61,976 nucleotides of DNA from Eubacteriales bacterium (GTDB lineage Bacteria > Bacillota > Clostridia > Oscillospirales > CAG-272). The notes below the pieces were generated by a model. That model was not told where the DNA came from. It did not search any database and was given only the letters and a program-made list of their open reading frames with translations. Positions 7,898-59,267 of the stretch are shown here, one piece after another; position 1 is the stretch's first letter, and each line of letters begins with the position of its first letter. The DNA lies in NCBI GenBank assembly GCA_045643785.1, contig JAZRFR010000031.1, forward strand, positions 1 to 61,976, given 5' to 3'. The position numbers and the translations under genes were made by a program.

Positions 7898-7938
7898 AAC
7901 AGTTACCCCTTTTTTTCAATATAGTGGAATATCCAAAA

Positions 7939-15417: not shown

Positions 15418-17106
15418 TTAATGACGCTTCTCAGGCTTCGGGATCACGCCCGAATCGTTCAGCGTCAGCTTGTCGAAGAAGTACTTCTTATCTCCGACGA
15501 AAAAGATGAGTCTGTCTGCGTTTTCAAAGCAGTATTTCTTTTGGAACACCGACATCACGCGCAGAGACAGCGGCAACATCTGAGCGTACCGTCTGTAGTT
15601 CTGCGTATGGGTCGCGCTCGTCTCTCCCATCTGCACCGCATCCATGGCAGAGGCGCAGAATTTGCAGTAGAACTGGGAATTCAGGTTGTCCGCCGTGTAG
15701 CTTCTTCCGCAAAGACGGCAGTTCGTGGTATCTTCGGCCACGACTCGCAGCGTCTGTGTATCGAAATTCAGGAGAGGCGTATAGGCCACCTCGCCGTCCT
15801 CGCAGTGGTGCAGCACCTCGGGATAGGGGCAATCCGCGCACTTGTAGCGCGTACGGCCGTGATCCTCGAAGGCAACCGTATTGCATCTGCAACGGTAGCG
15901 GACGCACTCGATGTTGCGGCGAGTCAGCTCAGAGCAGCTGATGGGGAAGAAATGCTCGGCGAAGGGGCTTTCCCTCTGAATCATCTCCAGCTGCTCGGCC
16001 GTAAGTCCCAGATCGGACTTGGCGGTATTGATACGGATCTGCTTGGTCGCGCCTGTTTCGGGCGATACGCAGGTAATGACGTTACGCTCGATCAGACGGT
16101 CGCGCGCTCCGCCGCAACGGCAGGTCATGGTGATGACGCCATCCTGGGTGATCTTGGCGAAAAACGCCTTGTGGCCGTCCACGTACACGTCGAAAACGGG
16201 ATCGACCCATTGGATGTGGCTGATGCCCAGCACCTTGATCTTCTTGCACGCCAGCTGAACCTCGTCCTGGGGCTCACCGGACATCAGATCATCCAAAGTT
16301 GCCAGGTCGGTGGCATTCGTAACCAGAATGCCTTCGGAGAAATCGCGATCCATCTCACCCTTGAGCAGTTTGTCCAGGGAGTTGAGCACGTTATCCACGA
16401 TCTCGGTCTCGGTGTCGGCGTCCGCGCCCTTATCGGCGGCGCCTCGCTGGCTGACGATACTGCTCACGTAGGAGTCGATCTCGGCGGCCTCGGACGTCAG
16501 CACCGTGCGGAATTCCTTCCCTGTCTTGCGGAAATAGACCTTGCACAGAAGGGGGCGAGGCTCACCCACACCGCTGAAGACCTCCATACGCAGAGACACG
16601 GCGTAGATATCCTCCACGCTGTCCTTCTGCCCGGCGGTGGCTACGCGGGTGACCCGCAGTTTTAGGCCGTCGGCCACCCGCTGGATGACCTTCTGCTGTT
16701 CCTTGATCTCGGCGTCGTCGCGGGACATCTCGTTCTGTATGAACTCGACCAGCGAGAACTGCTTGTGGTAGTTCGTGGAGACGAGCTCAAGCAGGTTGTG
16801 CCAGATACCCATAACGCTGTCGTTTTCAGCGCCGCGGAAGCCTCTGAACCAGCTGGCTCCGCTGGGCAGCATACCCTCCACGGCACCGCTGTCGATGGTC
16901 GACACGTCACCCACGTACTCGAAAATATACTGCTCGGTCTCGATGACACGGTTGTCGCGACAAGCCTGAATAATGGAACGGTCAATACACCCGCTGTTTA
17001 CCAGCGCGCAAATGCTTCGGAAAGCATCCCGGTACTGTCGACCGATCTTCACATATACTTTATCGTTGTTCATCACAGCAACCTCATTCATTTCTGTCCG
17101 CATCAA
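15418..17106 (-). CDS. Cys-rich (multiple Zn-ribbon-like CxxC pairs) protein, unknown function
   Basis: C-terminal half has TCRCGG, CVRYRCRCN, YKCADCPYP, NCRLCGRS and YCKFCAS. Start uncertain (ATG 17106, 17091 or 17073). It overlaps the SNF2 stop at 17084, suggesting translational coupling. Confidence 0.65.
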   Translation of the reverse strand: MMRTEMNEVAVMNNDKVYVKIGRQYRDAFRSICALVNSGCIDRSIIQACRDNRVIETEQYIFEYVGDVSTIDSGAVEGMLPSGASWFRGFRGAENDSVMGIWHNLLELVSTNYHKQFSLVEFIQNEMSRDDAEIKEQQKVIQRVADGLKLRVTRVATAGQKDSVEDIYAVSLRMEVFSGVGEPRPLLCKVYFRKTGKEFRTVLTSEAAEIDSYVSSIVSQRGAADKGADADTETEIVDNVLNSLDKLLKGEMDRDFSEGILVTNATDLATLDDLMSGEPQDEVQLACKKIKVLGISHIQWVDPVFDVYVDGHKAFFAKITQDGVITMTCRCGGARDRLIERNVITCVSPETGATKQIRINTAKSDLGLTAEQLEMIQRESPFAEHFFPISCSELTRRNIECVRYRCRCNTVAFEDHGRTRYKCADCPYPEVLHHCEDGEVAYTPLLNFDTQTLRVVAEDTTNCRLCGRSYTADNLNSQFYCKFCASAMDAVQMGETSATHTQNYRRYAQMLPLSLRVMSVFQKKYCFENADRLIFFVGDKKYFFDKLTLNDSGVIPKPEKRH

Positions 17107-19918: not shown

Positions 19919-19956
19919 ATCTATCTTCCTTTCGGTTTCCGATCAAACGGCGGATC

Positions 19957-28561: not shown

Positions 28562-28654
28562 AGTAATAACCATCCTTTGATTATTGAGCGTTTTGCGCCA
28601 AAGACGCAAAAGGCGTGTTTGAGAACGTGCCGCAAACACGCCTCCATGATGCGC

Positions 28655-31600: not shown

Positions 31601-34600
31601 TCCGCGCACCGTCACGGTATGCTCGATCATCTCGCCCTCTGCCTTGGTGGGATCATAGGGGAATACGTACTTGAGCCACCCATCTACGAAGGAAACCAGA
31701 CCTGCATCGTTGGCGTTCGCAAAAATATCGTAATTGCCGCTCTGCGTGTCAAGCTTTACCTCTTCACGGTCATCGATCTGTACCGAGAACTCGTCAAGTG
31801 CCTTTTCGATGGAATAATGGTAGATTCCGAGGATCTGCGTGATGCCGTCGTGCGTATACACTTCAACATACTCGTCGGGATCGATCACCTCCACGTCCAG
31901 CTTGCCGACCTCGGGATTCTTTTCGAAGTAATACATATTCGATGCGGATTCGCTGTAAGCGTTGCTGACGATGGGATAAAAGGCCGTCGCATTGCCCACC
32001 TCGTCAACCACGAGAATCAGCTCGTTTACGGGTTCAGTATATACGGTGAAGTTTGAAGCGGTTCCGTTCAGTCCCATATAGCCGTTTGTACGATCGCTCA
32101 TCATGGGGATCGGCTGACTGCCGTCAACCGTCTTGAGCGTCCACTCGTCCGTTTCGGGATCGACGTATGCGTGGTAGACGGTCAACGCTCCGTTGGGAGA
32201 GTGGGCGTAATCGATGTTGAAGTATACCGACTGGGCCACGATTCTTTCGTATTCGGTTCCCTCAATGGGGTACGTGTAAACGTCACGCAGAGTATCCACC
32301 ATGGTGATCGAGGAACCGAATTCCATGCTCATCTCCACCGTGGGGGCTTCATCAAACAGGTTGATCTCGAAGCGGCTCTCGGGGGAAACCTTGCCGTTTT
32401 CCATAATGAACTGATAGCAGATCACGTTTCTTCCGATCGCCAGCTTGAAGTTGCTGACGTCCAGCGCCGCAAGCTCCTCGGAGGAAACGATCATCTTGTC
32501 GTCCACGTTCGCATACCAGCCGAGATCTACCCACAGCGAATACTGAGTGAGTTCATCTCCGGCATACAGTGAGCTCCATTCGAGGGTGGAAGGATCGCCG
32601 CTGCTTGCCGCATTCCATATGCGTATACCGCTGACCTTGCCGATGGTCTGTCCGAGATAGGTCGTACCCGACGTTGGGATGTCTATGTTGATATACGACC
32701 TGGAAGGCTCCCAGCCCGCTGTTTGGCCCAACGCGTTTGTCTCGCTTCGCATAAATGCGGGCTTACCGTCCTTGTAAATGACGGTATTGGACATCTCGTC
32801 GATTTCGTTGTGATGCTCGGTAGGATGAACAACACCGATGTTAACAGACGTGAGATACTTGCCGTCGGTCGCTTTTTCGCTCATGTCGATGGTGGAATCG
32901 TACGTATATTCCACATACCGCTCATATTCGGAAACGCCATAGGATTCGGGAACGGGATCATTGTCGAACAGAAGCTTCTCTTCAAGGAAGAATTCCTGCG
33001 CTCCTCCGCTCTTTTGGGCGACGTATATCACGATCCCGTACGCGCCGCTGACAGAGTCATACTCGGACTGAGGAACCGCGATGCTTTGCGCCGAGCCAAC
33101 CACAAGCGGTATGCGCTCTCCCAGGAGATCTCCCGTGCGGTTGCCTTCGGCATCCAGCACGACGAACTGCGCGTAGGAGTTGGCGAAGTCTATATCGCTG
33201 GCACCAAGGGAGGGCATCAGCAGATTCGTGAGTGTGAAATGATACTTCACACCAAGGATGGATTTGTATATCCTATAGAATTCATATCCGTTGCTCTGTT
33301 CCAACGCAACCTCTACGCCCGAGCCATCCGTAACACCTGCGAGAATCACCTCGTGGACGTCGTTACGCAGACAGGTGTATATCATCTCGAAGCTGTTTCC
33401 CTGCTGGAAGGAGGTATCTCCCTCGTCTACGACAGGGCCGTTCACCACGGGCGTCAGATCGGTGCCCGATGCCGCAAGATGGATGTTCATTATACCGTAA
33501 TAGCTGTTCCAATCGGGAACCTCGACCGTAACGCTCTCATATACGCCCGCGTTGATCTCTACGAGATACCAATCGGTGGCCGTCGGGTCCAACAAAGAGA
33601 TTTCTTGGTTTTTGTCGGTCATATTGAACACCCGAACGTAGGTCTTGCCGTCGATCTCAACGGTAACTCTCGTATATCCTCCGTATACCGCGTTCGAGGA
33701 TACGGGAGCCTGAATGTTCACGTCCGAGATGCCGCCGGGCTTATTCTCATCGTAAACGATCTTGTAGCGCGAGTTGATTCTTTGGAGATTTGCCGTGAAC
33801 ACGCTCTCGTCCGACGTATAAGAAGAACAATTTCCGACCTTATCAAATGCCCTGACGTGTAATATTTTGGTTACAATATCCACAGAGGACTCGGGAGTAA
33901 ACTCGATTTGGTCGCCGGACTGTATGATCGTCCAGCCGTTGTCCGTGGGAGCTGCTCCGACGTCGGTCCACTGATATTCGATACGCTCGACGCCGTTCAG
34001 ATCGGTCGCCGATACGTCTGCGCGGAAGGTCGCGGTGTTGGTCGTGTCATCCGCGCGCTCGATCACCACCGCGTGAGGCGCTACCAGAAGCGTGGGCGCC
34101 TTGCGGTCGATCCCGAGATCGGTCAGCAGCGCGGAAACGGTGGACGTGTTGCCCTTGGCGTCCTCGAGAGAAAAATCAAGCTGAATTCCGATCGAATCCA
34201 AAAGCTCGGTCGCTTCCGTCGTATTCAAATGCAAATGTAAGAAATATTCACCCGGTACAGGGATCCGGAAGTCCGAATACTGCTGTACCGTATTGACCGC
34301 AGTACCGTTGCCGCTAAAGGTAACGGGATCAGCCGAGTCGGTTACGGCGTACCGCCACGTCAAGCCCTCAACGCTTGCCGCCGAGGATACTGAAAGCTTC
34401 TGGTTGATATCCGCCGTGATCCCTGATTCGGAATCCGCCACGTTCAGCTTTATGATAAAGTACTTTTCATCATGCTCGTCGATATGCTTGATCACGTCGC
34501 CGACCATCTCAAGCGTCGGTCCCTCGTTATCGAAGGTGAATTGCTTATCGACACTCACGCCGGAGAGGCTACCGTTCATAATGTTGTGGCTGGCATCCTC

Positions 34601-36088
34601 AAACTTCCCCGCGCCGATCAGCTCAATCGGACGAATCTCGCCGTCCATGCCTTCCGCAAGGGTGATCCTGTCAAACACCAGCTTCGTAACGTTGCCTGTG
34701 TTCTGCGACGGCTTTATCGTCCGGATCTCCTTGAGCGGGGTGATGATGTAATTTCCGTTTTGATCCGTCAGGTTCCATTTGAGCTTAACGTCCTTCATCT
34801 GCGCGCCTTGGATCAAAAATACCTGCTCGCTGAGTATCAGACTAAGCTCCACCCAATCTCCGTGCGCCAGGAACAGATCCGCTTGACTCAGATCCCCCGC
34901 CTTGACGGCGTTGCTGTCAAGCTCTATCGATGCAACGGTTGTTGCCATGGCGTCAAGATATATGGGCTTTGTTTTAAGCGATACCGTTCTGTCAAGGGCA
35001 AAGGGATTACCTGCCATATCCGTAACGGGAGACTTTACGGTAGTACCCGTATCGCCCCTGGTCGTATAAAGAGGATACTCACCGTATTCCGACACGTCCT
35101 CAAGCTCGACGATGCGCCATTCGTCTCCGATCAACGCTTCGGCATCGGTGGCGGTAAATCCTATTTTACAGTAATCGCCGCTAAACCGCGTTGCCTCAAA
35201 GAGCACCTCTGTATACTCACTTGACTGAGCAAGCTTTGGAACAAGGTAAGCCTTGAACTTCAGGGTTGCAAGCATCTCATAAGTGATCTGATTGGGAGCG
35301 GAGGGGCGCACGGTCTCGCCGCAATCCAGCCAGATGATCGGAGTTCCGTCGGCCGTGACCTCGCCCGTAACCGTAACTTCATTCGAAGGCGCCTCGAAAT
35401 CGGCGGTCAAGACTATAACGTCCTTGACCGTATAAAAGGTATTTCCCTCAAAGGAGGTCACACCCCATGGGGTCGTGATCGTCTGGGTCTTGAAGTTGCG
35501 GTCGTGGTCGCCCGCGTACGATGCAACACGGGCTTGTGTATCATAGACATCGACTTCGTTTAGGTATACAAGCCTGGATTTGAACTGATGCTTGTTATCC
35601 TTCATGTACGTTGCAAAGTACGTTTCTCCGTGCTCCACGCCCGGATATACCTTCACCTCATATTTGCCGATGTTGCCAATAAGAACGTCGCTGTAGGAGG
35701 TCTGGATCCTGGCTCCGCGCCCCGTAAACGTCTTGCTCTTCATAGTCGGGCCCCAAACTCCCGTTGACCTCACCAAGCACTTGTTCTGATCTGTCACGTA
35801 GTAGAAATCATCTGACTGGTCGTGAGCGGCGTAAAGCTCCGTATTTTCGGCAAGGTGCGCGGGCAAGATTCCATAGTTATAACTAAACTCACTCGGCATC
35901 CTGAGGTATTCAACGGTATTGCTCCGCGTGTTTGCGCTGTTACCCGTCTGTTGCTCGACGGGCACTGACTCTGAGGTCACTATAATCGGGAGAGACAGCA
36001 GAAGTGCCATGGTCAGCAAAATACAAACCGCGGATTTGCCAACTCTTTGCAGCCTTCTGACTGTTCTGAGCCTAAAAATTTTCTTCAT
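28655..36088 (-). CDS. 2477-aa secreted giant protein with repetitive beta-rich/Ig-like architecture and no C-terminal anchor
   Basis: N-terminal signal/anchor KSAVCILLTMALLLSLPIIVTSES. No recognisable catalytic motifs. Its ATG is embedded in an ATGA overlap with the stop of the upstream small gene. Confidence 0.8.
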   Translation of the reverse strand: MKKIFRLRTVRRLQRVGKSAVCILLTMALLLSLPIIVTSESVPVEQQTGNSANTRSNTVEYLRMPSEFSYNYGILPAHLAENTELYAAHDQSDDFYYVTDQNKCLVRSTGVWGPTMKSKTFTGRGARIQTSYSDVLIGNIGKYEVKVYPGVEHGETYFATYMKDNKHQFKSRLVYLNEVDVYDTQARVASYAGDHDRNFKTQTITTPWGVTSFEGNTFYTVKDVIVLTADFEAPSNEVTVTGEVTADGTPIIWLDCGETVRPSAPNQITYEMLATLKFKAYLVPKLAQSSEYTEVLFEATRFSGDYCKIGFTATDAEALIGDEWRIVELEDVSEYGEYPLYTTRGDTGTTVKSPVTDMAGNPFALDRTVSLKTKPIYLDAMATTVASIELDSNAVKAGDLSQADLFLAHGDWVELSLILSEQVFLIQGAQMKDVKLKWNLTDQNGNYIITPLKEIRTIKPSQNTGNVTKLVFDRITLAEGMDGEIRPIELIGAGKFEDASHNIMNGSLSGVSVDKQFTFDNEGPTLEMVGDVIKHIDEHDEKYFIIKLNVADSESGITADINQKLSVSSAASVEGLTWRYAVTDSADPVTFSGNGTAVNTVQQYSDFRIPVPGEYFLHLHLNTTEATELLDSIGIQLDFSLEDAKGNTSTVSALLTDLGIDRKAPTLLVAPHAVVIERADDTTNTATFRADVSATDLNGVERIEYQWTDVGAAPTDNGWTIIQSGDQIEFTPESSVDIVTKILHVRAFDKVGNCSSYTSDESVFTANLQRINSRYKIVYDENKPGGISDVNIQAPVSSNAVYGGYTRVTVEIDGKTYVRVFNMTDKNQEISLLDPTATDWYLVEINAGVYESVTVEVPDWNSYYGIMNIHLAASGTDLTPVVNGPVVDEGDTSFQQGNSFEMIYTCLRNDVHEVILAGVTDGSGVEVALEQSNGYEFYRIYKSILGVKYHFTLTNLLMPSLGASDIDFANSYAQFVVLDAEGNRTGDLLGERIPLVVGSAQSIAVPQSEYDSVSGAYGIVIYVAQKSGGAQEFFLEEKLLFDNDPVPESYGVSEYERYVEYTYDSTIDMSEKATDGKYLTSVNIGVVHPTEHHNEIDEMSNTVIYKDGKPAFMRSETNALGQTAGWEPSRSYINIDIPTSGTTYLGQTIGKVSGIRIWNAASSGDPSTLEWSSLYAGDELTQYSLWVDLGWYANVDDKMIVSSEELAALDVSNFKLAIGRNVICYQFIMENGKVSPESRFEINLFDEAPTVEMSMEFGSSITMVDTLRDVYTYPIEGTEYERIVAQSVYFNIDYAHSPNGALTVYHAYVDPETDEWTLKTVDGSQPIPMMSDRTNGYMGLNGTASNFTVYTEPVNELILVVDEVGNATAFYPIVSNAYSESASNMYYFEKNPEVGKLDVEVIDPDEYVEVYTHDGITQILGIYHYSIEKALDEFSVQIDDREEVKLDTQSGNYDIFANANDAGLVSFVDGWLKYVFPYDPTKAEGEMIEHTVTVRGYVGGEIAVDIDGNRAERTFTVSAPNVKPALTIGENPAIGAVGVTANTYLYAQGITQREIYDPYNTVYDEEMGENLPVVLYTDSYSAEFALPIFKDGGYTYGFFDKYGEYYELSIAVTGLPKDPVISVSETKVTKDPVTVTVNSSTGGVFTVDADALPEGTVVTGNGTSSLQIVLSDNASFHISCTYSGSSYDIPISITNIYNKPIVPVVVWNYNPYKVNKADNSYEGEITATLMDENGSYLTDENGMVPTFTFVPGGETSYVFTNYKNHVGMTGEDITATLPVTIKIPQTEESVNDTYAPDVGVTGYVKHQSGAVELNGAYVLTDTSRPTEAQVALNNYTAMYGAENLHPHISDLISQVVWAETLILTLDIMDENQTKLFISSDVSADAPDYSTGTSDGVAGVSIVGRTLQINQNCEFALHVVDSKNNSATIVFSVDVLGEEPPAPTLVQALIKNGTEVRIYLADPPLQGVTNLRITNVDITPMVETDTLSSFFGKQYLSVTENKAVTVHYSYEYDGQVFTGSVNTAVSCIDMTTPQVNNTLWSANYDGTGVRYTNQDVSVQMTFSKTLAEVYVCDKDGNRMMDPAGVTVVFMHDRVTVIYEDNTPAMYIKVVSSLNKSLTNIISLPEISTIDKIAPVLESTVDMSDHHMQATVTVAANETVTWQNGLKDAKLTQTVRQNGTYTYRVTDRAGNVGEISVRVSDIVTEKLTITLSSDADGRNIIDPETYNVNVGDTVYVSVNRDAYVTLNGNADGINVSANTWTAITIAEDSEGLYPSVYAVDAYGNSAIVQMLRIPMPDRTAPTLMINKSLISLSLDASEQEIRTALRENITATDNSTSKDALIFSFDIPNATAAGTYAVTYLVEDEDGNKSSAEGRIRFYSGEQIAVKVNGEIVEKDQCVIVDSGEITITLSHNREPYKLDMREGNKSVGQMKNHSISLTDGYTDAAENEMTLELTQDYHTFLVTTQGRDMYRFVIYVTG

Positions 36089-47523: not shown

Positions 47524-49701
47524 TTAGTCCTTCTTGCGGATCACTGCGACGGCGGCGGCCATAAGAATCCCCGTCAGGCCAAAGGCCACGGCAGACGCGC
47601 AACCGCCCTCGGCAGGTGCCTGGGTCTCGGGAGCGGCGGTGGGAGCCTCGGTGGGTACTTCGGGAGCCGCGGTTTCGGGAGCCGCGGTGGGTGCTTCGGT
47701 CTCGGGGGCGGCAGTGGGAGCCTCGGTAACGGGCTCGGTCACAGGCTCGGTCTCGGGTTCGGTCTCGGGCTTCATAGCCTCCAGATAGGCCAGATAGTCG
47801 GTGATGGAGCCCTCGGGTGCCCAGCCCTCGGCCACCTTGGCGGCCTCCTCGGCGGTCTTACACAGAACGATGGCACCGAAGTACATGGACACGTCGGCGG
47901 GGGTGTTGGAGCCGTCGAAAATATCCAGACGAATGTTGTTGATGTTGCCCGTCCAGTTGGATACCTTGCTCATGTCGGCCACCACGTACTGCCAGCCGTC
48001 CATGCCCGACTTCACCGACACGGTCTTGGTACGGCCTGCGGCGGCGCCGTTATCCTTGCCTGCGGCGTAGTAGAGGGAGAGGGAGGTGTTAGCGGAGGAG
48101 TGATTGTTCTTGACCTTGAACACGATGTACTTATAGGTATCGGCCGAGGCGGGAGCCAGAGGGCCGAAGTCCAGAGAGGCGTAAGGGTCAACGGTCTGGG
48201 AGGAGGTGGTCATCTTGAAGGCCTTTTCGGTCTCGTCATAACCGGTATTCACGGCGTTCTGGCCGCCGATCAGGTCGTTGATCAGCGCGCCGTCCAGATA
48301 GGTAGCGGGGATGGTGGACATGTCCACGGAGGTCTTGATGTAGGACAGGCTTCCCTGCTTCTCGCAAACGGGAGTGTCATTCCAGACCACGCCGATACCG
48401 TTGATGACGGAGCGGACGCTGCCGTCGGAGCACTTATTACGGACGGTGTAGCTTCCCTCTTCCAGGGTGACGAAGGTGGCGGATCCGCCGCCGTCCAGGT
48501 AGAACACGCTGTTAAAGCCCATTTCGGTGCAGAACTTGAAGCCGTCCGAGAAGCGCAGACCGAGATACTTCCCATCCTGGGTGGAGGTCACGGTGCAGAG
48601 GACCACGGTGCCGTCATCGCGGTAGCCCACGAAGGAGGTGGGGTAGTTGGAGGTATCCCCGTTGGCAACGGCCAGCTTGCCGTCCACGATAGGTTGCATA
48701 TGGCCGCCGATGGCGTCCTCAACGTCCTGCCACATCTCGGAGCGGCCCATGCGGTCGGTCATGGTGGTCTGGAAGGTGACGGTATCGCCCACCTTGAAGT
48801 TGTTCTGGAGGTCGCCCACGCGGTTGCCGCGGGCGGTGAGGATGATGGACTTCTCACCGATGGCGGGGCGAGTAGCGGCACCGGCCTTGTAGATGGCCAC
48901 CACCTTGGCGGAGATCTCACCGCCGGCCTTGAAGGCGGTGGAATCATCCACCTTCAGCTCCACCTCGTAGGCATCGTTCAGGGCGTAGTTGGTGTCGTTG
49001 ACGCGGTGGTTGTAGACGATGAGAGAGTTGAGGGCGGGGAGGCGGTTGATGCCATCGGCCTTCAAAGTCTTACCGTTGACCGAAATGGACACGGTAATGT
49101 CGGGGGAGCCCACCAGAGGCTGGTTCTGGGAGGTCACGCCGAAGGCGGCCTTGTTGCCGCAGGGCAGTCCCTTTTCGTTGTTGGTCGCGCCCAGATTCTC
49201 CTGGTCGATCTGCTGGGATGCCCAGATCTCACCGTCGATGATGAGCACGCCGCGGACGACCGACAAAACCTTCTTGGAAACGGCAGAACCGCTGTGGACG
49301 GAGTTCATAAAGAGGTCACCGTTGATGGCGGCCAAAACCGTCTGTCCCTTATGGGCGGTGTTATAGTCTGCCGCGCCCTTGTCCATGGTCTTCTTGCTCA
49401 CCATATACGTGCCGTTGTTGATGACCTCCATGGACAGGTGGGTGTTGGACAGGTCGATCTCCACCATGTTGACCTGACGGTCTGTGCCGTAGGTGGAGCC
49501 GCTGATGGCAATGTCCGTCCACATGACACCGGTCTTGGTGCCGTCGGGCAGGAGGATCTCTTGAGTCTTGCGGCTCTGCTCGTCGCTGAGCTTTTCGGCG
49601 GGCGCGGCGGCCATGGCGGGGGTGATCCACGCCGATACCGACAGGCTGAGAGCCAGGATCAAAGACAACAGGGCCATAGCAAAACGGGTATTACGTTTCA
49701 T
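47524..49701 (-). CDS. Secreted phosphodiester glycosidase (NAGPA/DUF2233) family protein with a GC-motif/TM/RKKD tail
   Basis: Signal peptide. VFYLDGGGSATFV (LDGGGS motif). PETEPETEPVTEPVTEAPTAAPETEAPTAAPE linker. Tail GGCASAVAFGLTGILMAAAVAVIRKKD. Confidence 0.7.
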   Translation of the reverse strand: MKRNTRFAMALLSLILALSLSVSAWITPAMAAAPAEKLSDEQSRKTQEILLPDGTKTGVMWTDIAISGSTYGTDRQVNMVEIDLSNTHLSMEVINNGTYMVSKKTMDKGAADYNTAHKGQTVLAAINGDLFMNSVHSGSAVSKKVLSVVRGVLIIDGEIWASQQIDQENLGATNNEKGLPCGNKAAFGVTSQNQPLVGSPDITVSISVNGKTLKADGINRLPALNSLIVYNHRVNDTNYALNDAYEVELKVDDSTAFKAGGEISAKVVAIYKAGAATRPAIGEKSIILTARGNRVGDLQNNFKVGDTVTFQTTMTDRMGRSEMWQDVEDAIGGHMQPIVDGKLAVANGDTSNYPTSFVGYRDDGTVVLCTVTSTQDGKYLGLRFSDGFKFCTEMGFNSVFYLDGGGSATFVTLEEGSYTVRNKCSDGSVRSVINGIGVVWNDTPVCEKQGSLSYIKTSVDMSTIPATYLDGALINDLIGGQNAVNTGYDETEKAFKMTTSSQTVDPYASLDFGPLAPASADTYKYIVFKVKNNHSSANTSLSLYYAAGKDNGAAAGRTKTVSVKSGMDGWQYVVADMSKVSNWTGNINNIRLDIFDGSNTPADVSMYFGAIVLCKTAEEAAKVAEGWAPEGSITDYLAYLEAMKPETEPETEPVTEPVTEAPTAAPETEAPTAAPETAAPEVPTEAPTAAPETQAPAEGGCASAVAFGLTGILMAAAVAVIRKKD

Positions 49702-51526
49702 GATGTTTCTCCTTTACATTCTTTTTCGTAACGAGGGGAATGGGCGCCACGACCGCAAGGATCGCGACGAGGGGCGCCACCGCCGAGGCACAGCCCTTGC
49801 CCTTGGTTGGGGCTTGCGAGGTCTCGGAAGGGGCTGCCGTTGTATCGGCAGGGGAATCGGAGTCATCAAACCCGGTTGTCGGAGTGGTTTCGGGGGATGC
49901 GGGGGGCGCGGTTTCGGGTTCGGTCTCAATATAGCTATCCTCGTCGGGAATCACGTAGATTTCCTTCTCGGTATTGCTCTCCTCGCTCATGTCCCGGAAG
50001 ATCACGGGATCACCGCTCTTATAGGGAGTCTGCTTGGCAGGATCCTGCGAGGCGGCCTTTCGCGCGGCTTCCGCGGTGCGGAAGAACTGCACCGAGGCGA
50101 ATTCCACGCCGTCGCCCGCGTCACTATCGGCGCTGATGTAATCGAAGCGCCAGCCGTTGATGATGCCGCCCCAATTTTCCTTTTGGGAGAGATCCACCAA
50201 AAGGTAGTGCCACTTTCCGTCCTTTTGCAGGGTCACTCCTTGGTTACAGGCCTCGGTCGCGCCCGTGATGGGACCCGAGCAGAGGTAGAGGTTCATGCGG
50301 TCGGAGTTGTTGTTCTTGTCGGCGCGATACAGGAAGACCATGTACTTGTACTCGTCCGCGTCCAGCTTGATGCCGTTCTCCGCCAGTAGCGCGCCCGCGT
50401 TAAAGTGCGCGAAAGGATCGTTGGTCTCTTCCTTCACCTCCATGCGAAGAACGTCGCCCAACGCCGCATCGCTGATGCCTGCGGCGGTCGAATGGTTGTA
50501 GCCGACAAAATAGTTCAGAACATCCCCCGACAGGTAGATTTTGGCGGCCACGCGGTCTGTCACGTAACCGTGATAGACGAACTCGATACCCGTCACCGTC
50601 ACCTCGCCGCCGAGGTAGCCCGTAAGCCACACGTCGCCGTAGTGATTCATCTCGGTCAGATCGATCTCCATCACCCCCGCCCCCGTCGCGGGATCCAGAG
50701 GGGCATAAACCAGATTATCCGTGAGATTGTAGGACTGCCCTGCGGTGCCGTAGCCATGCTTCCCCGCAGATTTCAGACCCAAAATGGGCTTTCGCCCCTC
50801 TCCCACGCCTGCGTCCGCATTTTCAGCGGTGTAGGTGATCCGCATGCAGGCAAAGGCCGTCAGATTGAGCTCACCCAAGCGAACGCGGCCTTCCTCGGCC
50901 AGCGTAATCCCCTCGGGCGCCACGGTAGCGTTCCCCGCCAGAGAACCACCGCCCTCCCGCAGAATGCGAGAAAAGCTGATCCCGTGCTTCTTGCCGTCGT
51001 CGGGATCGGGGTCGCCGTAGCGAAGATTCAGAAGCGCTACCAGATCGCAGGGAAGCCCCATGCCGTCCAGCGCGCGGATGTATACGTCATACGTTCCTTC
51101 GGAAAGATCAACGGGGGGATCGATCGTCAGGGAAAAGCCCGCGCTCCCGTGACCCGAGGCGTGGGGGATACCCGCGGCGGCCAGATCGCCGCGAGGGGTC
51201 ATGCTGACCTTCTCCACCGTCCTCCACTCGGCGTGACCGCCGCCCGAAGGAACCCACAGGTATTGGTAGACAGACACACCCTCCGGCGTAGCCAGCCAGC
51301 CGCCGGCGGTAATGGATTCACCCAAGGGAAGATGCAGGTCGCGGATGACACCGATCATGGTGCCGCCGACACCGTGTCCGTTCAGATTGTCCACGCTGAA
51401 TTGGTAGGGGACACGCCCGCCCTCGTCGGGGGCGGCGGCCACCGAAAGGGCGGAAATAACCGGCACAAAGACCAGTATCAGTATGAGTAGGGCCGCAAGG
51501 CCGCGTTTGGGATCTATGCGATGCAA
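49691..51526 (-). CDS. Secreted protein of unknown function with a GC-motif/TM/basic tail
   Basis: Signal/anchor GLAALLILILVFVPVISALSVAAA. P/T/E-rich linker. Tail KGKGCASAVAPLVAILAVVAPIPLVTKKN. 11-nt overlap with the downstream gene. Confidence 0.65.
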   Translation of the reverse strand: MHRIDPKRGLAALLILILVFVPVISALSVAAAPDEGGRVPYQFSVDNLNGHGVGGTMIGVIRDLHLPLGESITAGGWLATPEGVSVYQYLWVPSGGGHAEWRTVEKVSMTPRGDLAAAGIPHASGHGSAGFSLTIDPPVDLSEGTYDVYIRALDGMGLPCDLVALLNLRYGDPDPDDGKKHGISFSRILREGGGSLAGNATVAPEGITLAEEGRVRLGELNLTAFACMRITYTAENADAGVGEGRKPILGLKSAGKHGYGTAGQSYNLTDNLVYAPLDPATGAGVMEIDLTEMNHYGDVWLTGYLGGEVTVTGIEFVYHGYVTDRVAAKIYLSGDVLNYFVGYNHSTAAGISDAALGDVLRMEVKEETNDPFAHFNAGALLAENGIKLDADEYKYMVFLYRADKNNNSDRMNLYLCSGPITGATEACNQGVTLQKDGKWHYLLVDLSQKENWGGIINGWRFDYISADSDAGDGVEFASVQFFRTAEAARKAASQDPAKQTPYKSGDPVIFRDMSEESNTEKEIYVIPDEDSYIETEPETAPPASPETTPTTGFDDSDSPADTTAAPSETSQAPTKGKGCASAVAPLVAILAVVAPIPLVTKKNVKEKHHET

Positions 51527-51611
51527 AGGGGTTACCTCCTTTGGTGTATTCTGCCTCTATTATACACTATTTTCCCGCGTTTGTGAAGGGGGTTTTCCGA
51601 AAATTTTTAAA

Positions 51612-51640
51612 GAAAAACCCCACCTGCAGGTGGGGTTTTA
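51612..51640. terminator. Bidirectional terminator (perfect 18-nt palindrome)
   Basis: AAAAA CCCCACCTGCAGGTGGGG TTTTA. Confidence 0.75.
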
Positions 51641-51649
51641 AAGTCAAGG

Positions 51650-52885
51650 TCAATCCTTCTTTTTGCAGACCAGCGCCCATGCCGCCATGAGCAGCAGCGC
51701 CGAAAGAGCGCCCGTGCCGATGGCACCGGAGCAGCCGTACTTGTCGAGAAGCATTTCCAGCTCCTCGTCCATGGGAAGCGGGTCGCTTTCCGCGGGAGTG
51801 GCAGGTCGGGGCTTGGTTACCACTTCAGGGGGCTTCGTATCGGCAGGCTTCTGGGTTTCGGGTCTTTGGGGCTCGGGAGCCGGCTCGGTCTCGGGTGCGG
51901 GATCGGTCTCGGGAGACGGAGGCACCGTCTCATATCCGCGGCCCATGTCTACGATCCCGTCGCACAAAAGCCCCATATTCTCCTCGTAAGGCAGGTACAG
52001 GCCGATGCCGTTGTCGTAGACCGTCCAGGAAACCTGGGGAACGCCGTTGTCGTCAGCAATACCTTTGGTGGTACCGGCTGCCCACGTATATGCTCGGGTC
52101 GTCTTATCATCCATGTTCAGGTAGTACAGACAGCAGCCGATCTCCAAAGGAAATTCAGAGATTCCGCCGATATAGAGTTTCTTGTCGTCCCAAGACTTCC
52201 AACTGTAGTCGTCGTACAGCTGCTGCCAGGACAGAGCGAACTCGGCGGACCAACCGTCCTCGGTCTTCATAGCGGCGCCCTTCACGCCGTCGCCGTTCGC
52301 CTCGGAGATCCATCTGTCGTCATCGGACTCCTGACGCATGATCTCGATGGGAGCGCCGTCAGCCGCACAACCGAAGGAGTAGAAAATGTTCTTGGGGACA
52401 CCACCAACGTCCTCGGGGTTCTCCTCGAGTATCTTGCCCATACGGCCGCCGAATTCAAGGCAAAGCTGGATGGAGTCTCCCGAGTGGTAGTCACCGGCAT
52501 TGATGTAATTGAATGTGGGATCGGTTACGAAGAAACCGAAATACAGCCACTCCCGGTCCGCCACGAAATAGGCGGAAATGCTCCAGCCCTCAAGAACGGT
52601 ACCGAGAGGCTCCCAGTACACCATATTCGTTGTGTCGATCACGTACATGTCATAGCCGGCATCCACCCAATCGTTCATATCACCGTCGGACAGATCCAGC
52701 TTGGAAGCGGCCTCGGGATCCCAGGTAATACGAATGTCACCCACGGGGCAGAACGTGTCGGCGCTGTATCCGCCGGGAGACCAGTAAACACCGACCTCAG
52801 ACCCGGGCAGCTCGGCAGAAGCCGCCACCGTCCCGAAGGAGATCAGAGTAGCCATAGCAAGCAAAAGCGCAAAGATCTTTTTCAT
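51650..52885 (-). CDS. Secreted CBM9/DOMON-like sugar-binding protein, paralog 1, with a GC-motif/TM/KKKD tail
   Basis: Start at ATG 52885 (MKKIFALLLAMATLISFGTVAASA, GGAGG RBS). LSDGDMNDWVDAGYDMYVID and SWQQLYDDYSWKSWD are shared with paralog 2. Tail YGCSGAIGTGALSALLLMAAWALVCKKKD. Confidence 0.65.
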   Translation of the reverse strand: MKKIFALLLAMATLISFGTVAASAELPGSEVGVYWSPGGYSADTFCPVGDIRITWDPEAASKLDLSDGDMNDWVDAGYDMYVIDTTNMVYWEPLGTVLEGWSISAYFVADREWLYFGFFVTDPTFNYINAGDYHSGDSIQLCLEFGGRMGKILEENPEDVGGVPKNIFYSFGCAADGAPIEIMRQESDDDRWISEANGDGVKGAAMKTEDGWSAEFALSWQQLYDDYSWKSWDDKKLYIGGISEFPLEIGCCLYYLNMDDKTTRAYTWAAGTTKGIADDNGVPQVSWTVYDNGIGLYLPYEENMGLLCDGIVDMGRGYETVPPSPETDPAPETEPAPEPQRPETQKPADTKPPEVVTKPRPATPAESDPLPMDEELEMLLDKYGCSGAIGTGALSALLLMAAWALVCKKKD

Positions 52886-52919
52886 GATGAAAACCTCCCA
52901 TACAAGAGTATCTGACCTC

Positions 52920-52948
52920 ATTATAGCACACTTTTCCCCCATTGTCAA
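52920..52948 (-). promoter_or_regulatory. Consensus sigma-70 promoter of paralog 1
   Basis: Minus strand reads TTGACA (52948-52943), 17-nt spacer, TATAAT (52925-52920). Confidence 0.6.
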
Positions 52949-52979
52949 GAAAAACCCCACCTGCAAGGGGCAGGTGGGG
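52949..52979 (-). terminator. Rho-independent terminator of paralog 2
   Basis: Minus strand has CCCCACCTGCC CCTT GCAGGTGGGG followed by TTTTTCTT. The stem sequence is the same as in the 51612-51640 terminator. Confidence 0.7.
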
Positions 52980-53022
52980 AAATTTCTTTTCCTATGTGCG
53001 ATTCAAGCCTTGGAAAAAGGAA

Positions 53023-54207
53023 TTAGTCCTTCTTCTTCAGAGCAACGAAAGCAGCGGCAGCAGCCAGAACGGCAACAGCACCAAAGCCAACGACGGAAGC
53101 GCAACCCTCTTCGGTGGTAGCAGCAGCGGTGGTCTCGGTAGCGTTGGAGTCGGCGGGAGCCTGAGTAGCAGCCTCGGTCTCGGGAGCCTGAGTAGCGGCC
53201 TCGGTCTTAGCCTCGGTCTCGGGAGCCTCAGTCTCGGGAGCGTCGGTCACCTCGGGAATGGTCTCGGTGATGGGCAGAGCAATGATCTGCTCGCAGTTGA
53301 AGGACATGCCATCCTCGTAGGGCAGCTTCAGGTTGATACCGTTGTCGTAAGCAGTCCAGGAAACCTGGGGAGTGCCTGCGTCGTCAGCGATACCGTTGGT
53401 GGTACCGGCAGCCCAGTTGATGGTGCCACCGGTCTCGGTACGATCCAGGTAGTACAGGCAGCAGCCGACCTTGAGGGGCAGAGCCTGGTCACCACCGAAG
53501 TAGATCTCCTTCTCGTCCCAAGACTTCCAGCTGTAGTCATCGTACAGCTGCTGCCAGGACAGAGCGAACTCTGCGGACCAACCGTTCTCGGTCTTCTTAG
53601 CGGAGCCCTTGACACCCTCGGTCTCGGGATCCATGACGCCGTCAGCGTCAGACTCCTGACGCGTGATCTGGAGGGGTGCACCGTCCTCAGCGCAAGAGAA
53701 GGAGTAGAAAATGTTCTTGGGGTTGGATACTGCATAGGGATCCTCTGCAATCAGATCGCCCAGCTTGCCGCCGAAGTCAATGCAGACCTGGAAAGCATCA
53801 CCGTCGTATCCATTGCCGGAGCCGTAAGCGAAAGCGGGATCGGTTACGTAGAAACCAATGTAGAACCACTCGGAGTCAGCCACGAAGTAGGTGGAAATGT
53901 TCCAGCCCTCGGGGATACCGGTACCGTTGGTGGTATCATTGACCCAGTACACCATGTTCGAGGTGTCAACCGTGATCATGTCGTAATCGGCAGCAGCCCA
54001 GTCCTCCATGTCACCGTCGGTTACATCCAGCTTGGAACCAGCCTCGGGGTCCCAGGTGATGGTAACGTCACCGATGGTGCTGAACGTGTCAGCACTGTAT
54101 CCGCCGGGAGTAAAGGAGATACCCTCGGGCAGAGCGGCAGATGCCAGAACAGCGCTCAGAGAAAGAAGCATAGCTACAGTCATAAGAATAGCAAAAATCT
54201 TCTTCAT
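53023..54207 (-). CDS. Secreted CBM9/DOMON-like sugar-binding protein, paralog 2, with a GC-motif/TM/KKKD tail
   Basis: Start at ATG 54207 (MKKIFAILMTVAMLLSLSAVLASA, GGAGG RBS). Collinear with paralog 1. Tail EEGCASVVGFGAVAVLAAAAAFVALKKKD. Confidence 0.65.
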   Translation of the reverse strand: MKKIFAILMTVAMLLSLSAVLASAALPEGISFTPGGYSADTFSTIGDVTITWDPEAGSKLDVTDGDMEDWAAADYDMITVDTSNMVYWVNDTTNGTGIPEGWNISTYFVADSEWFYIGFYVTDPAFAYGSGNGYDGDAFQVCIDFGGKLGDLIAEDPYAVSNPKNIFYSFSCAEDGAPLQITRQESDADGVMDPETEGVKGSAKKTENGWSAEFALSWQQLYDDYSWKSWDEKEIYFGGDQALPLKVGCCLYYLDRTETGGTINWAAGTTNGIADDAGTPQVSWTAYDNGINLKLPYEDGMSFNCEQIIALPITETIPEVTDAPETEAPETEAKTEAATQAPETEAATQAPADSNATETTAAATTEEGCASVVGFGAVAVLAAAAAFVALKKKD

Positions 54208-54503: not shown

Positions 54504-55625
54504 ATGAAAAAGCTTATCACTCTGCTTCTCTGCGCGGTTCTGTGTCTGACCGTACTCGTCGCCTGCGACAAGGGTAACGATCAGCCCACCGAGACCAAGG
54601 GCGAGAACAACGCCACCACCACCGCTCCCGCCGAGGATGCCACCGAGGCTCCCACCGAGGAAGCCGCTACCGAGGCCGACGAGACCAATGCTCCCGAGGA
54701 GACCGCCGCCTCCGACGAGACTCAGGATTCCGCCAACCAGGAGTACGATCCCGAGCTCTACGTCGTCATCAAGACCCCCGAGGATCTCATGGCCTTCAAC
54801 AAGGCTGTCAACGAGGATTTCGAGTACTTCGATGACAAGACCGTTGTGTTCCTGGCCGATATCGACATGACCGGCTACGAGTGGATCCCCCTGGACGGTG
54901 AATACCTCTTCGGCGTCACCTTCGAGGGTAACGGCCACACCATCTCCAACCTGCAGTTCGCTCTCCACGATCCCGAGCAGGGCACCGATGCCTCCCGCAT
55001 GGGCTCCGGCTTCGTCGGCGTTGCTACCCAGGATATGACCTTCAAAAATCTCACCATTGACACCGCATCCGTGGTTGCTTACGAGCGCGCCGTCGGTTGC
55101 TTCATCGGCGTACAAACCAACGGTTTCGTCGAGTTTGAAAACTGCACCGTCAAGAACTTCACCGCCGAGGGTTGGATGGATTACAACAACCAGAATCGTG
55201 ACGAAGGCGGTCACCCCATCTCCTTCCGTCTCGCCGGCTTCGTCGGTCACAACATGGCCGGCCAGCTGTACTTCAACAAGTGCCACGTAGAGAACGTCAA
55301 GCTCTCCGGCTTCCACAACATGGCCGCTTTCGTTGGCTACGGCTCTGTTACTCTGGACGAATACGCCTTTGAGGAGTGCTCCGTCAAGAATCTGGAGTGC
55401 ACCTTCTCTTACTGCCTGGCCGATGCCTACACCGTAGACATGCCCCGTAAGTTCGTCTCCGTCTTCTTCAACCATGCTCAGTGGATCGATAAGGTTGAGG
55501 CTTGCGTGGAGATGGGTAACACCTTCGAGGGCGTGAGCTACTACGACTACTCCGACGGCAACGCCGAGTACACTCCCTCCGACTTCATCTCCTGGAGCGA
55601 GGAAGAAGCCAACACTCCCGCGTAA
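54504..55625 (+). CDS. Lipoprotein of unknown function (possibly beta-helix)
   Basis: Lipobox LTVLVAC-DKG, then an acidic T/E/A-rich linker. Repeats of the type F.N.T......A...G.FVG suggest a parallel beta-helix. Confidence 0.65.
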   Translation: MKKLITLLLCAVLCLTVLVACDKGNDQPTETKGENNATTTAPAEDATEAPTEEAATEADETNAPEETAASDETQDSANQEYDPELYVVIKTPEDLMAFNKAVNEDFEYFDDKTVVFLADIDMTGYEWIPLDGEYLFGVTFEGNGHTISNLQFALHDPEQGTDASRMGSGFVGVATQDMTFKNLTIDTASVVAYERAVGCFIGVQTNGFVEFENCTVKNFTAEGWMDYNNQNRDEGGHPISFRLAGFVGHNMAGQLYFNKCHVENVKLSGFHNMAAFVGYGSVTLDEYAFEECSVKNLECTFSYCLADAYTVDMPRKFVSVFFNHAQWIDKVEACVEMGNTFEGVSYYDYSDGNAEYTPSDFISWSEEEANTPA

Positions 55626-57269: not shown

Positions 57270-59267
57270 TTACTTGTATTCCACGCTCACCGCAGCAGAA
57301 GTAGCGTCGTAGGAATTCACCTTGTTTTTGTTGATGATAAACGCGATCTCGTCGCCTTCGGCCACCGTCAGGGTGATCTCGCCGTCGACGGGAGAGCTGT
57401 GGGTGATGAGAAGGCCGCCGTCTCGTTCCTCGCCTATGGCTATTTCATTGCCGTTGTGACGAATGTACAGGATCACACCGTCACTCTGCTCCGAGGCTAC
57501 CGCAAAGCTGTAGGAGCATACCACCTCACCCGCCTTGGGGGCTTTGAAAACCAGCGCGGCATCCGTCGTGTCGGGATGCATGGAGCCCGCCGAAATGAGG
57601 CAGTACTCCGCCGCTCCCTTCCAGCGGTTGTTGGCGGCGTCAAAGGTCATGTCGGTCATACCCTTGCGGGCAGAGGAACGGTAATACCAGTTCTTGTGCC
57701 CCTGCTCGGAGGAAAAGTCACCGGGGAAGGCGTAGAGCGCGATCGGCTCGGTGGGAGTGGTGTGAGTCAGATCGTCCACCACCTTGACGTAGACGAACTC
57801 GCCGTTTTGGGCGGCATTGCGGTATTCCGTGATGTAACGATCCGCATTTCTCTTGCGGAACAGATCCAGCAAAGAAACCTCTATGACGGGGCTATCGGCC
57901 GTCGGCTGTACGATCGAGGGAGGATTCTCACCCAGCCACGTGGAGGAAATCTCCTGCCATACGGGGCGGTAGGTCTGGTAGTTTGCGTCCATGTTCCAGT
58001 TGGCCGCGCTGACGTAGGTACAGCCTCGCTCAAAGCAGGTAAGTCCCTGCTCCAGGTACCGTTCAGGCGTTGCGCCGTTCTGATGAGGGCCGTCAATCTC
58101 CTGAGCCAGCTCCACCGTAGCGGGCAGAACAGAGCGAATATAGTCCATGGAGAAGTGGTGGTTCATGAGAGGACCGTCGTCGATCCAGAGGACGTCTACG
58201 TTCTCGCAGAGATCCACGACACCGTAAGTTCCGCGCAAAGCCGAGGCGGTGTCGTACACGCAACCCAGCTGGATGGAGAACTTGGTGTCCCCCGCCACCT
58301 CGTCCTGGGCGGCGGCCAGCCGGTCAATAACGGTTTTCAGGCTATTGTGGCGGAAAGCGTACCAAAGCTGACCCAGATTGTCACTTGCTCCTGCGGTGGG
58401 AGGCTCGACCTTGTCAAAAGAGGCGGGACTCGTTCCCAGCGCGGTGTTCAGGGCTTCAACCGTTCCGTACGTTTCCTTCAGGAAGGAACGGAAGGCGGCC
58501 TTGGCGTGGTCGGAATAGTCGTATTCCCCCGCGCACCAGTATTCGGTCTCGGCGTACTGGGAGAAGGCGGGGAGATAGAACAGGACGGCGTCACCGTACC
58601 TTTCGTCGTAGTGCTTCACGGCGTCCTTGTAGAAGGCCACGCATTTCTCCACGGCGTTCTCGGAATTGAAGGAGATCTGGAGGCGGTTGCCCGCTCCCGA
58701 GCCGCCCATGCAAAGGTTACCCGCAGGATCCCGCATGATATCGTTTTCGGTGAGTACCTTATCCCCCTTGGTGCGGGTCATGTCCAGGGAAATGGCTACC
58801 TTCATGCCCTTTTCCTTCACCACGTAGTCAATCATGGCGTCAAAGGCGGCGTAATCATAGACCCCGTCCGTCTTTTCAGCATGATGCCACGGGATATGCA
58901 CCTTGATGGCGTTGAAGCCGTCGGCGGCCACGGTGTCCACGGTGCTCTTGAAGGCGGCGAGGGAGTGGATATCGAAATTCCAGATGCGGAAGATGAAGTA
59001 ACGTTCCTGAATCTCCAGAGGCTCGACAGGCATGGTAGGCTCCTCCTCGGTGGGAATTTCGGGGGCGTCGGTAGTCGGATCAACAGGCACATCGGTGTGC
59101 GCTCCGGTGACCGTGTCTGTGACCGCGTTTGTGACACTGTCGGTGGGTGCGGCACTTTCGGCAGAGCCCTCGGTGGTATCAGCGGGCGGTGCAGCTTCAT
59201 TCGTGCAGGCCGGCAGAGCCGTAATCAGTAACAAAAGGCACAGGAAACAAAGCCAAATCCGTTTCAT
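57270..59267 (-). CDS. Lipoprotein glycoside hydrolase (GH42/GH35-like TIM barrel N-domain)
   Basis: Start at ATG 59267 (MKRIWLCFLCLLLLITALPAC, lipobox, GGAGG RBS). GFNAIKVHIPWHHAEKTDGVYDYAAFDAMIDYVVKEKGMKVAISL resembles the GH42 N-terminal signature. Confidence 0.6.
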   Translation of the reverse strand: MKRIWLCFLCLLLLITALPACTNEAAPPADTTEGSAESAAPTDSVTNAVTDTVTGAHTDVPVDPTTDAPEIPTEEEPTMPVEPLEIQERYFIFRIWNFDIHSLAAFKSTVDTVAADGFNAIKVHIPWHHAEKTDGVYDYAAFDAMIDYVVKEKGMKVAISLDMTRTKGDKVLTENDIMRDPAGNLCMGGSGAGNRLQISFNSENAVEKCVAFYKDAVKHYDERYGDAVLFYLPAFSQYAETEYWCAGEYDYSDHAKAAFRSFLKETYGTVEALNTALGTSPASFDKVEPPTAGASDNLGQLWYAFRHNSLKTVIDRLAAAQDEVAGDTKFSIQLGCVYDTASALRGTYGVVDLCENVDVLWIDDGPLMNHHFSMDYIRSVLPATVELAQEIDGPHQNGATPERYLEQGLTCFERGCTYVSAANWNMDANYQTYRPVWQEISSTWLGENPPSIVQPTADSPVIEVSLLDLFRKRNADRYITEYRNAAQNGEFVYVKVVDDLTHTTPTEPIALYAFPGDFSSEQGHKNWYYRSSARKGMTDMTFDAANNRWKGAAEYCLISAGSMHPDTTDAALVFKAPKAGEVVCSYSFAVASEQSDGVILYIRHNGNEIAIGEERDGGLLITHSSPVDGEITLTVAEGDEIAFIINKNKVNSYDATSAAVSVEYK

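Follow-up and report, generated by a model that had tools for sequence, protein, structure and literature searches.

Cys-type C-terminal sorting signals were tied to proteases of the CPBP family, the "myxosortases", only in 2023–2025. MrtX has been shown experimentally to cleave MYXO-CTERM in a Cys-dependent manner, and the authors of that study (Guo, Haft & Wall 2025) predicted that the missing first step is carried out by an "Lgt-like acyl-transferase" (PMC11980579). A preprint on such signals (Haft 2023) makes no mention of Firmicutes or Clostridia. Here, we analyzed a 61,976 nt stretch of contig JAZRFR010000031.1 (Eubacteriales bacterium, assembly GCA_045643785.1), hereafter called the window, in which five secreted proteins end in a common C-terminal tail with a Gly-Cys signature, a transmembrane (TM) helix, and a basic end (the Cys tail). 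The Cys tail is a large family restricted to one lineage of Clostridia, uncultured bacteria of the gut and rumen, and Cys-tail genes were found directly upstream of a recurrent gene pair encoding an Lgt-like protein and a CPBP protease. We consider it fairly probable that the tail is the Firmicute counterpart of the MYXO-CTERM sorting signal, with the Lgt-like enzyme lipidating the Cys and the CPBP protease removing the helix.

The five open reading frames (ORFs) and their C-terminal sequences were exactly those given in the original prediction and were located as follows:

3327-4697 (-): gene for a secreted N-acetylmuramoyl-L-alanine amidase, 456 amino acids (aa); Pfam Amidase_3, 105.5 bits
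3327-3407 (-): Cys tail of the amidase, GCGAVLTSSALLITLFGAAFVWKKKD, and stop; translation and DNA-pattern match
47524-49701 (-): gene for a secreted NAGPA protein (phosphodiester glycosidase), 725 aa; Pfam NAGPA, 63.8 bits
47524-47604 (-): Cys tail of the NAGPA protein, GCASAVAFGLTGILMAAAVAVIRKKD, and stop; translation and DNA-pattern match
49691-51526 (-): gene for a secreted protein without assigned function, 611 aa, TTG start; ORF without a Pfam match
~49691-49792 (-): Cys tail of the 611 aa protein, GCASAVAPLVAILAVVAPIPLVTKKN; translation
51650-52885 (ORF to 52966) (-): gene for a secreted CBM9-like paralog, ~411 aa from MKKIFALLL; clusters with the 53023-54207 protein
51650-51736 (-): Cys tail of the ~411 aa protein, GCSGAIGTGALSALLLMAAWALVCKKKD, and stop; translation
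53023-54207 (ORF to 54327) (-): gene for a secreted CBM9-like protein, 394 aa from MKKIFAIL; structure match and homologs
53023-53106 (-): Cys tail of the 394 aa protein, GCASVVGFGAVAVLAAAAAFVALKKKD, and stop; translation

All five proteins showed a signal-peptide-like N-terminus, a linker rich in Pro, Thr, and Glu (PT/E), the signature G-C-[AGS]-[SGA], approximately 21 hydrophobic residues, and a KK(K)D/N end. The tails of the amidase and the NAGPA protein were matched by a degenerate DNA pattern, with 0.00 matches expected from 100 shuffles, and a six-frame scan that included all ORF ends revealed no further real tail in the window. The Pfam matches bore out the earlier amidase and phosphodiester glycosidase labels, and an exact lookup of the amidase sequence returned no record. 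An ortholog of the NAGPA protein is present in a related locus (L068) with approximately 94% DNA identity. The 611 aa protein ends in KKN followed by eight extra residues, VKEKHHET, an extension that is also kept in L068; the last 11 nt of its gene are shared with the start of the NAGPA gene downstream. The 611 aa and NAGPA proteins have a common C-terminal domain just before the linker and cluster together. Orthologs of the ~411 aa protein (P0001 and P0101) retain a KYGC... tail. The AlphaFold2 (AF2) model of the 394 aa protein had a predicted local distance difference test (pLDDT) score of 80 overall and above 90 in the globular domain, with a disordered linker (residues 323–376) and a terminal helix (residues 377–392). 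The globular domain matched the CBM9 structures 1I82 and 7NWN (prob 1.00, E=2.5e-8), so that the CBM9-like label proposed earlier for this protein is supported by the model.

The distribution of the tail was determined in a DNA-pattern scan of 596 Gb of genomes (one genome per species, 185,579 species). The scan returned 97 matches in 87 loci, approximately 92 of which were genuine tail-bearing ORFs. These belonged to 43 species-level metagenome-assembled genomes (MAGs) labeled Clostridia, Eubacteriales, Oscillospiraceae, or Mageeibacillus, all from the guts or faeces of ruminants and other animals. Several genomes contained five to six matches each, although the pattern catches only two of the five window tails. 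Outside the lineage, four matches (Maribacter, two Bryobacterales, and Oceanospirillum) and one doubtful Ruminococcus MAG were found, which is about the number expected by chance. A search against 1.84 billion representative proteins was then made with a hidden Markov model (HMM) built from 17 tails and returned 313 protein clusters at E<=1e-3, indicating a genuine large family. Among the 150 representatives listed, 147 were newly returned, and 133 of these matched exactly at the C-terminus, with Gly at position -1 in 132; the remaining 14 were partial matches, mostly large repeat proteins. The scan and the HMM search replaced an earlier word-index search with the tail profile, which had yielded only four fragments.

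The proteins bearing the tail formed at least 22 clusters of unrelated passengers with extracellular-type domains, including Amidase_3, NAGPA, GDSL esterase, GH32, Laminin_G_3, Big_2/3, LTD, GLUG, and CBM9-like domains; many had no Pfam domain. The tail is thus portable between extracellular proteins, as originally proposed, and this holds throughout the lineage. The likeness of the tails could also be explained by recent duplication or gene conversion of linker and tail among a few paralogs, in which case the tail itself would be functionless. This explanation would suit the adjacency of four of the five window genes and the passenger similarity within two pairs of them. However, the five window tails differ at most positions, also at the DNA level, while the motif is kept, and the tail occurs on unrelated passengers in 43 species and in hundreds of protein clusters. 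This breadth excludes the case, raised together with the prediction, in which the tail is confined to a few paralogous linkers; chance and paralog duplication were both rejected on this ground, and we assign duplication a negligible probability.

In tails selected by the DNA pattern, the G, C, and KKD columns are forced by the pattern itself, and their invariance was discarded as circular. An unbiased survey was therefore made of all ORFs, from the loci and from the window, whose products end in a hydrophobic helix and a basic stretch (124 ORFs). Besides isolated ordinary TM tails, these fell into a Cys class and a Cys-free P-x-T-G-D class. The Cys class included variants outside the reach of the pattern (GCKS...RKRD, YGCT...RKKK, GCES...KRKE, SCGS..., and DCSS...), and the Cys was invariant throughout the class, as the original prediction had it for the five window tails. 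A search with the 394 aa protein gave the same picture: all 326 homologs came from uncultured Clostridia MAGs or metagenomes, and approximately 117 of the top 120 ended in GC[AGS][SGA]..G[FM][GS]..LAAAAA..LKK(K)D. In the homologs with the tail, the Gly-Cys was unchanging, and the linker just upstream was free to vary. The Cys and the basic cluster were 21 residues apart in 211 of 249 tails; the cluster was rich in Lys, not Arg, and ended in Asp. The CBM9-like paralog P0102 carries a Cys-free TM tail, showing that the Cys tail is swappable for a plain anchor.

An N-terminal signal-like segment was present in 165 of 174 full-length tail proteins, and only two of the 174 had a lipobox-like match. 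Separately, a 73 aa protein on an ENA contig (P0002) was observed to have both an N-terminal lipoprotein-type signal (…LFGC) and a C-terminal Cys tail; if both ends were processed, it would have a lipid anchor at both ends.

The multi-TM neighbors of tail genes in related loci were clustered, and a recurrent gene pair was discovered: an LGT-family gene (PF01790, 108 bits, cutoff 24.9) followed by a gene for an Rce1-like CPBP protein (PF02517, 59.7 bits, cutoff 22.4). In 17 of 17 loci, the two genes occurred together. Independent gene calls showed an overlap of 4–8 nt between the stop of the Lgt-like gene and the start of the CPBP gene, and the two are translationally coupled. The CPBP subfamily comprised at least 120 clusters at >=65% identity, all unnamed except one labeled "CAAX protease family" by the Joint Genome Institute (JGI). 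An independent sample was obtained by scanning metagenomes with the Lgt-like profile, which gave a series of homologs from 74% down to 28% identity. Pairing with the CPBP gene persisted over one large Lgt-like clade; the distant homologs were unpaired.

A Cys-tail gene lay directly upstream of the pair on the same strand in approximately 16 of 33 informative paired loci, as compared with a background of about 1% Cys-tail genes among the other genes in paired loci. The upstream genes belonged to three families without detectable mutual similarity: proteins of ~489 aa, proteins of 700–914 aa in a lineage whose Lgt-like protein is only 38–45% identical to the query, and 360 aa and 556 aa proteins in locus L072. 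Judging from these gene neighborhoods, three independent adjacencies of tail and pair are very unlikely to have arisen by chance. The pair is also present in a close relative of the window: the MAG JAZRIF01, which shares approximately 94–95% identity with the window across the tail-gene cluster, has the gene order FtsK, a 485 aa Cys-tail protein, LGT, and Rce1-like protein. Its Lgt-like and CPBP genes lie at positions 16360-18073 of JAZRIF010000111.1 (7148-8861 of locus L178). The CPBP protease is thus tied to the tails by its neighborhood, after the Lgt gene and downstream of Cys-tail genes.

The pair fits the original idea that the Cys could be a site of lipid attachment and cleavage, and a processing route can be proposed. 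The protein would be exported by Sec and cleaved by signal peptidase I, in keeping with the N-terminal signal evident from the sequence. The C-terminal helix would then retain it in the membrane; the constant distance of 21 residues, together with the positive-inside rule, predicts a cytoplasmic KK(K)D and a Gly-Cys at the outer face. An Lgt-family transferase may then place a diacylglyceryl lipid on the Cys thiol, after which a CPBP/Rce1-type glutamic intramembrane protease would cut just after the lipidated Cys and remove the helix and the KKKD stub. As a result, enzymes and binding modules would sit on a long PT/E stalk, and a lipid at the C-terminus would hold them at the outer leaflet, in a pathway that would mirror N-terminal lipoprotein maturation by Lgt and LspA. 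The route proposed for MYXO-CTERM (PMC11980579) supports this order of lipidation followed by cleavage.

The five window tails and 78 diverse tails were compared with the curated models of NCBIfam release 20 (June 2026), and no tail reached the cutoff of any model. The highest-scoring Cys-type model was Synerg-CTERM (TIGR04564, cutoff 22.5 bits), with 17.4 bits for the tail of the 394 aa protein; the best of the 78 tails gave E=1.7e-4, or approximately 21–22 bits when extrapolated from E-values. MYXO-CTERM (TIGR03382, GC_trans_RRR) scored at most 10 bits on the window tails against a cutoff of 15.85 and matched five of the 78 tails, with a best E-value of 0.95. The window tails also scored 16 bits with GVDTG (cutoff 29) and 10.8 bits with Rumino_NPXTG (cutoff 23.5), and weak matches of the 78 tails were spread over a dozen sorting-domain models. 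The best of the 78 tails are estimated to lie just under the model cutoffs, their bit scores being extrapolated from E-values. The resemblance to MYXO-CTERM- and Synerg-CTERM-type signals noted in the original prediction was supported overall. The Firmicu-CTERM model, named there as a possible match, was absent at E<=10 from the matches of the five window proteins and of their tails, and for the 78 tails it was absent from the 25 of 39 families listed; very weak matches can be hidden by the HMMER filters.

These comparisons bear on a further explanation, namely that the tail is a sortase-like signal for covalent linkage to the cell wall. The hosts are Gram-positive-type Clostridia, and the tails matched NPXTG and LPXTG anchor models weakly; the LPXTG model TIGR01167, for example, matched four of the 78 tails at E>=0.096. 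However, no LPXTG-type motif precedes the TM helix in the Cys tails, consistent with its absence from the window tails as first reported, and the NPXTG-type matches were confined to the TM and basic part. No sortase gene adjoined the tail genes in the annotated loci. The Cys-free class with the tail P-x-T-G-D-[ST]...IISL.GVA.V[AS]KR[RK]EN was found on proteins of ~360–385 aa, and two of four such tails reached the LPXTG_anchor cutoff (18.0 and 16.4 versus 15.9 bits); therefore, these genomes probably hold a sortase signal that is separate from the Cys tail. As sortase substrates in the same genomes look different, we regard a sortase-like role for the Cys tail as highly improbable. PxTGD-tail genes adjoin genes for ~610 aa GDSL-type Cys-tail proteins and were seen in loci L003 (ORFs of 370–384 aa), L034, L036, L047, L059, L062, L064, L071, L078, and L079.

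The CPBP protein kept all three motifs of its family, EExxxR, FxxxH, and HxxxD (as FEExAFRG, FGxxHL, and LLHAxYD). In a comparison with the 18,950 models of NCBIfam, its top three matches included MrtJ and Mrt_core, both of them models for myxosortases, and MrtJ was the best match for three of the four CPBP proteins scanned, suggesting that the protein is myxosortase-like, though no member of a curated family. The profile of the Lgt-like protein aligned over its full length with Escherichia coli Lgt (5AZB, E=9e-12), unlike the CPBP profile, which had no match in the PDB; single-sequence phmmer searches of the PDB with either protein returned nothing. The Lgt-like protein scored 63–69 bits with the equivalog model TIGR00544 (cutoff 118.9). 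It keeps the equivalents of E. coli Lgt Y26, D129, R143, G154, R239, and E243, with the substitutions H103Y, N146C, and E151C. The canonical Lgt motif is GRxGNFxNxExxG. The sequence GRLGCLMAGCC was considered as a mark of a specialized Lgt paralog and rejected, because it was itself one of the scan patterns and is also found in many distant unpaired Lgts.

Metagenome contigs L149–L177, many with JGI-style identifiers, encode GRxGCLxAGCCxG Lgt homologs of 28–36% identity without a CPBP partner. These look like a large, apparently uncharacterized clade of Lgts with Cys at the positions of E. coli N146 and E151. Two contigs of one whole-genome shotgun project, L106 (paired) and L116 (unpaired), have GC contents of 0.60 and 0.49, respectively, and probably come from different organisms.

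Several observations weigh against processing of the Cys tail by the Lgt/CPBP pair. Genes for a CPBP protein, a sortase, a rhomboid, an exosortase, or an Lgt were not found in the window, confirming the earlier statement that no sorting enzyme is visible there, and the pair is thus absent from it. About half of the paired loci had no adjacent Cys-tail gene. The residues before the Cys, [EKD]-[GSEK]-G-C, form no lipobox. The CPBP proteins scored only 18–22 bits with Mrt_core (NF040914, cutoff 100) and 17–26 bits with MrtJ (NF033192, cutoff 75); the AF2 model of the CPBP protein, with a pLDDT of 65, was too weak to support the fold assignment and had no significant PDB match by Foldseek, APH-1 having the highest probability (prob 0.51). 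The GRxGCLxAGCC motif occurs in many unpaired Lgts of unrelated metagenomes, and the paired Lgt may be the housekeeping lgt of the lineage: no second canonical lgt was seen in 744 kb of sequence, a sample far too small to decide the matter.

The paired loci without an adjacent tail gene would suit an explanation in which the tail is an unprocessed C-terminal TM anchor of type I membrane proteins and the pair an unrelated neighbor. The Gly-Cys would then be kept for helix packing, reversible S-acylation, or disulfide pairing. A TM helix with a basic end suffices for anchoring, and Cys-free TM tails occur on P0102 and on a 2099 aa protein of the window. Furthermore, most of the adjacency cases come from one synteny block (FtsK, 489 aa protein, LGT, and CPBP). 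However, a Gly-Cys that is invariant in more than 20 unrelated families, and always in one position, is unusual for simple anchors, and the genes directly upstream of the pair represent three unrelated tail families in different lineages. Signals of this very kind are also the substrates of the curated families closest to the CPBP protein (PMC11980579). A plain anchor is therefore unlikely, in our judgment.

In another explanation, the pair serves N-terminal lipoprotein maturation, with the CPBP protein in an LnsB-like or other accessory role and the tail either cleaved by it without lipidation, leading to shedding, or not a substrate at all. Lgt is the canonical enzyme of N-terminal lipoproteins, no second lgt was seen, and the unpaired Lgts with the same motif resemble the housekeeping genes of other bacteria. 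Classical lipobox proteins are encoded in the window at 54504-55625 (LVAC) and 57270-59267 (LPAC), and LnsB, a CPBP-like protein of Staphylococcus aureus, works in lipoprotein N-acylation (PMC7387801). However, LnsB lacks the CPBP catalytic motifs (PMC7387801), whereas the CPBP protein here keeps all of them. No LnsA-like NlpC/P60 partner turned up in the annotated loci, where no search was aimed at one, and the neighbors of the pair are Cys-tail proteins with N-termini of the signal peptidase I type, not lipoproteins. Lipidation and cleavage at the Cys would still be compatible with an Lgt of the housekeeping type, if this enzyme also worked on the tail. We consider this second explanation quite unlikely.

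Other features of the window were also recorded. Three genes encode giant surface-type proteins with Big_6 and MBG/YDG domains, at 22274-28573 (-), 28655-36088 (-), and 10527-15392 (-) (2099, 2477, and 1621 aa, respectively). The 2099 aa protein has a different TM tail, …ITACGGFAIFWFVIKKRKWSDLFHK, whose helix is not preceded by Gly-Cys. The region 5924-9372 (-) encodes an AAA ATPase, Vps4_C-like at its end, beside two unknown genes, and a separate trio at 15418-21942 (-) encodes an unknown protein of 561 aa, an SNF2/ResIII helicase of 944 aa, and a 661 aa protein with an actin/Hsp70-like N-terminus; these genes may represent a defence or mobile island. The membrane protein encoded at 4986-5855 (+) shows an odd combination, as its C-terminal ~70 residues match ribosomal protein L15/L27A (PF00828, 47 bits).

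Neither the tail nor the Lgt/CPBP cassette is described in the Haft preprint (2023) or in the papers returned by a full-text literature search. The type of signal and the class of protease are already known; the Firmicutes host, the Lys-Asp end, and the genetic link to an Lgt-family enzyme set the present system apart. Tentatively, and with the chances a little below even, we propose that Firmicutes have here their first C-terminal sorting system of the Cys type, that no earlier system has a genomic link between an Lgt-family transferase and a myxosortase-like CPBP protein, that an Lgt-type enzyme performs the first step of the MYXO-CTERM class, and that the products are "C-terminal lipoproteins". 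If the proposal holds, the proteins would be anchored by S-diacylglyceryl-Cys at a new C-terminus, the mirror image of the Lgt/LspA pathway. This would add a route of surface anchoring in Gram-positive-type bacteria to sortase, N-terminal lipoproteins, and TM anchors, and abundant uncultured gut and rumen Clostridia would use the tail to display glycoside hydrolases, esterases, carbohydrate-binding modules, and cell-wall amidases. The tail also bears on the annotation of these MAGs, in which most tail proteins are "hypothetical", and on fibre and glycan degradation. For the question of which enzyme modifies the Cys, the three-gene cassette of substrate, Lgt-family enzyme, and myxosortase-like protease is a compact system.

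Among the known systems, MYXO-CTERM/MrtX resembles the Cys tail in its Gly-Cys signature with an invariant Cys, single TM helix, and basic cluster, in the dozens of unrelated secreted proteins that carry it in each genome, in its CPBP/Rce1-type enzyme, and in the proposed two-step route of Cys lipidation and cleavage. In contrast to Myxococcota, the hosts here are Clostridia with a presumed single membrane, and no step involving a type II secretion system (T2SS) or an outer membrane is expected. The end of the tail is Lys-rich (KKKD) rather than Arg-rich, the signature has a single Cys instead of GCGC, and the protease gene is translationally coupled to an Lgt-family gene, whereas no lipidating enzyme has been assigned for MYXO-CTERM. 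JDVT-CTERM/MrtJ likewise has a CPBP sorting enzyme encoded next to the target gene, but it is a system of Proteobacteria with one dedicated target and another signature; here, the targets are many and dispersed, and an Lgt partner is present. Synerg-CTERM/MrtS shares the small Gly/Ser-rich signature, with a single invariant Cys as its last residue and the TM helix following directly, and it was the curated Cys-type model that scored best, still below its cutoff; it is restricted to Synergistales, is linked to T2SS, and differs in its basic cluster.

The Lgt/LspA lipoprotein pathway resembles the proposed route in its Lgt-family enzyme, the Cys at the outer end of a helix, and the removal of the helix by an intramembrane protease. 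However, the helix here is C-terminal to the Cys, in the opposite orientation and without a lipobox; the protease would be a glutamic CPBP protease instead of the aspartic LspA, and the Lgt-like protein falls below equivalog cutoffs. In CaaX processing by a prenyltransferase and Rce1, as found in eukaryotes and archaea, the Cys is also lipidated first and a CPBP-family enzyme cuts just after it, and the residues that follow the Cys here are CaaX-like (small-small-aliphatic-aliphatic). In the Cys tail, approximately 25 residues including the TM helix would be removed rather than three, the reaction would be extracytoplasmic, and diacylglycerol is the presumed lipid in place of a prenyl group. 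PGF-CTERM/archaeosortase A and LPXTG/sortase A also replace a tripartite C-terminal signal with a covalent anchor, which is a lipid in the case of PGF-CTERM, but their motifs differ and their enzymes are unrelated Cys proteases/transpeptidases.

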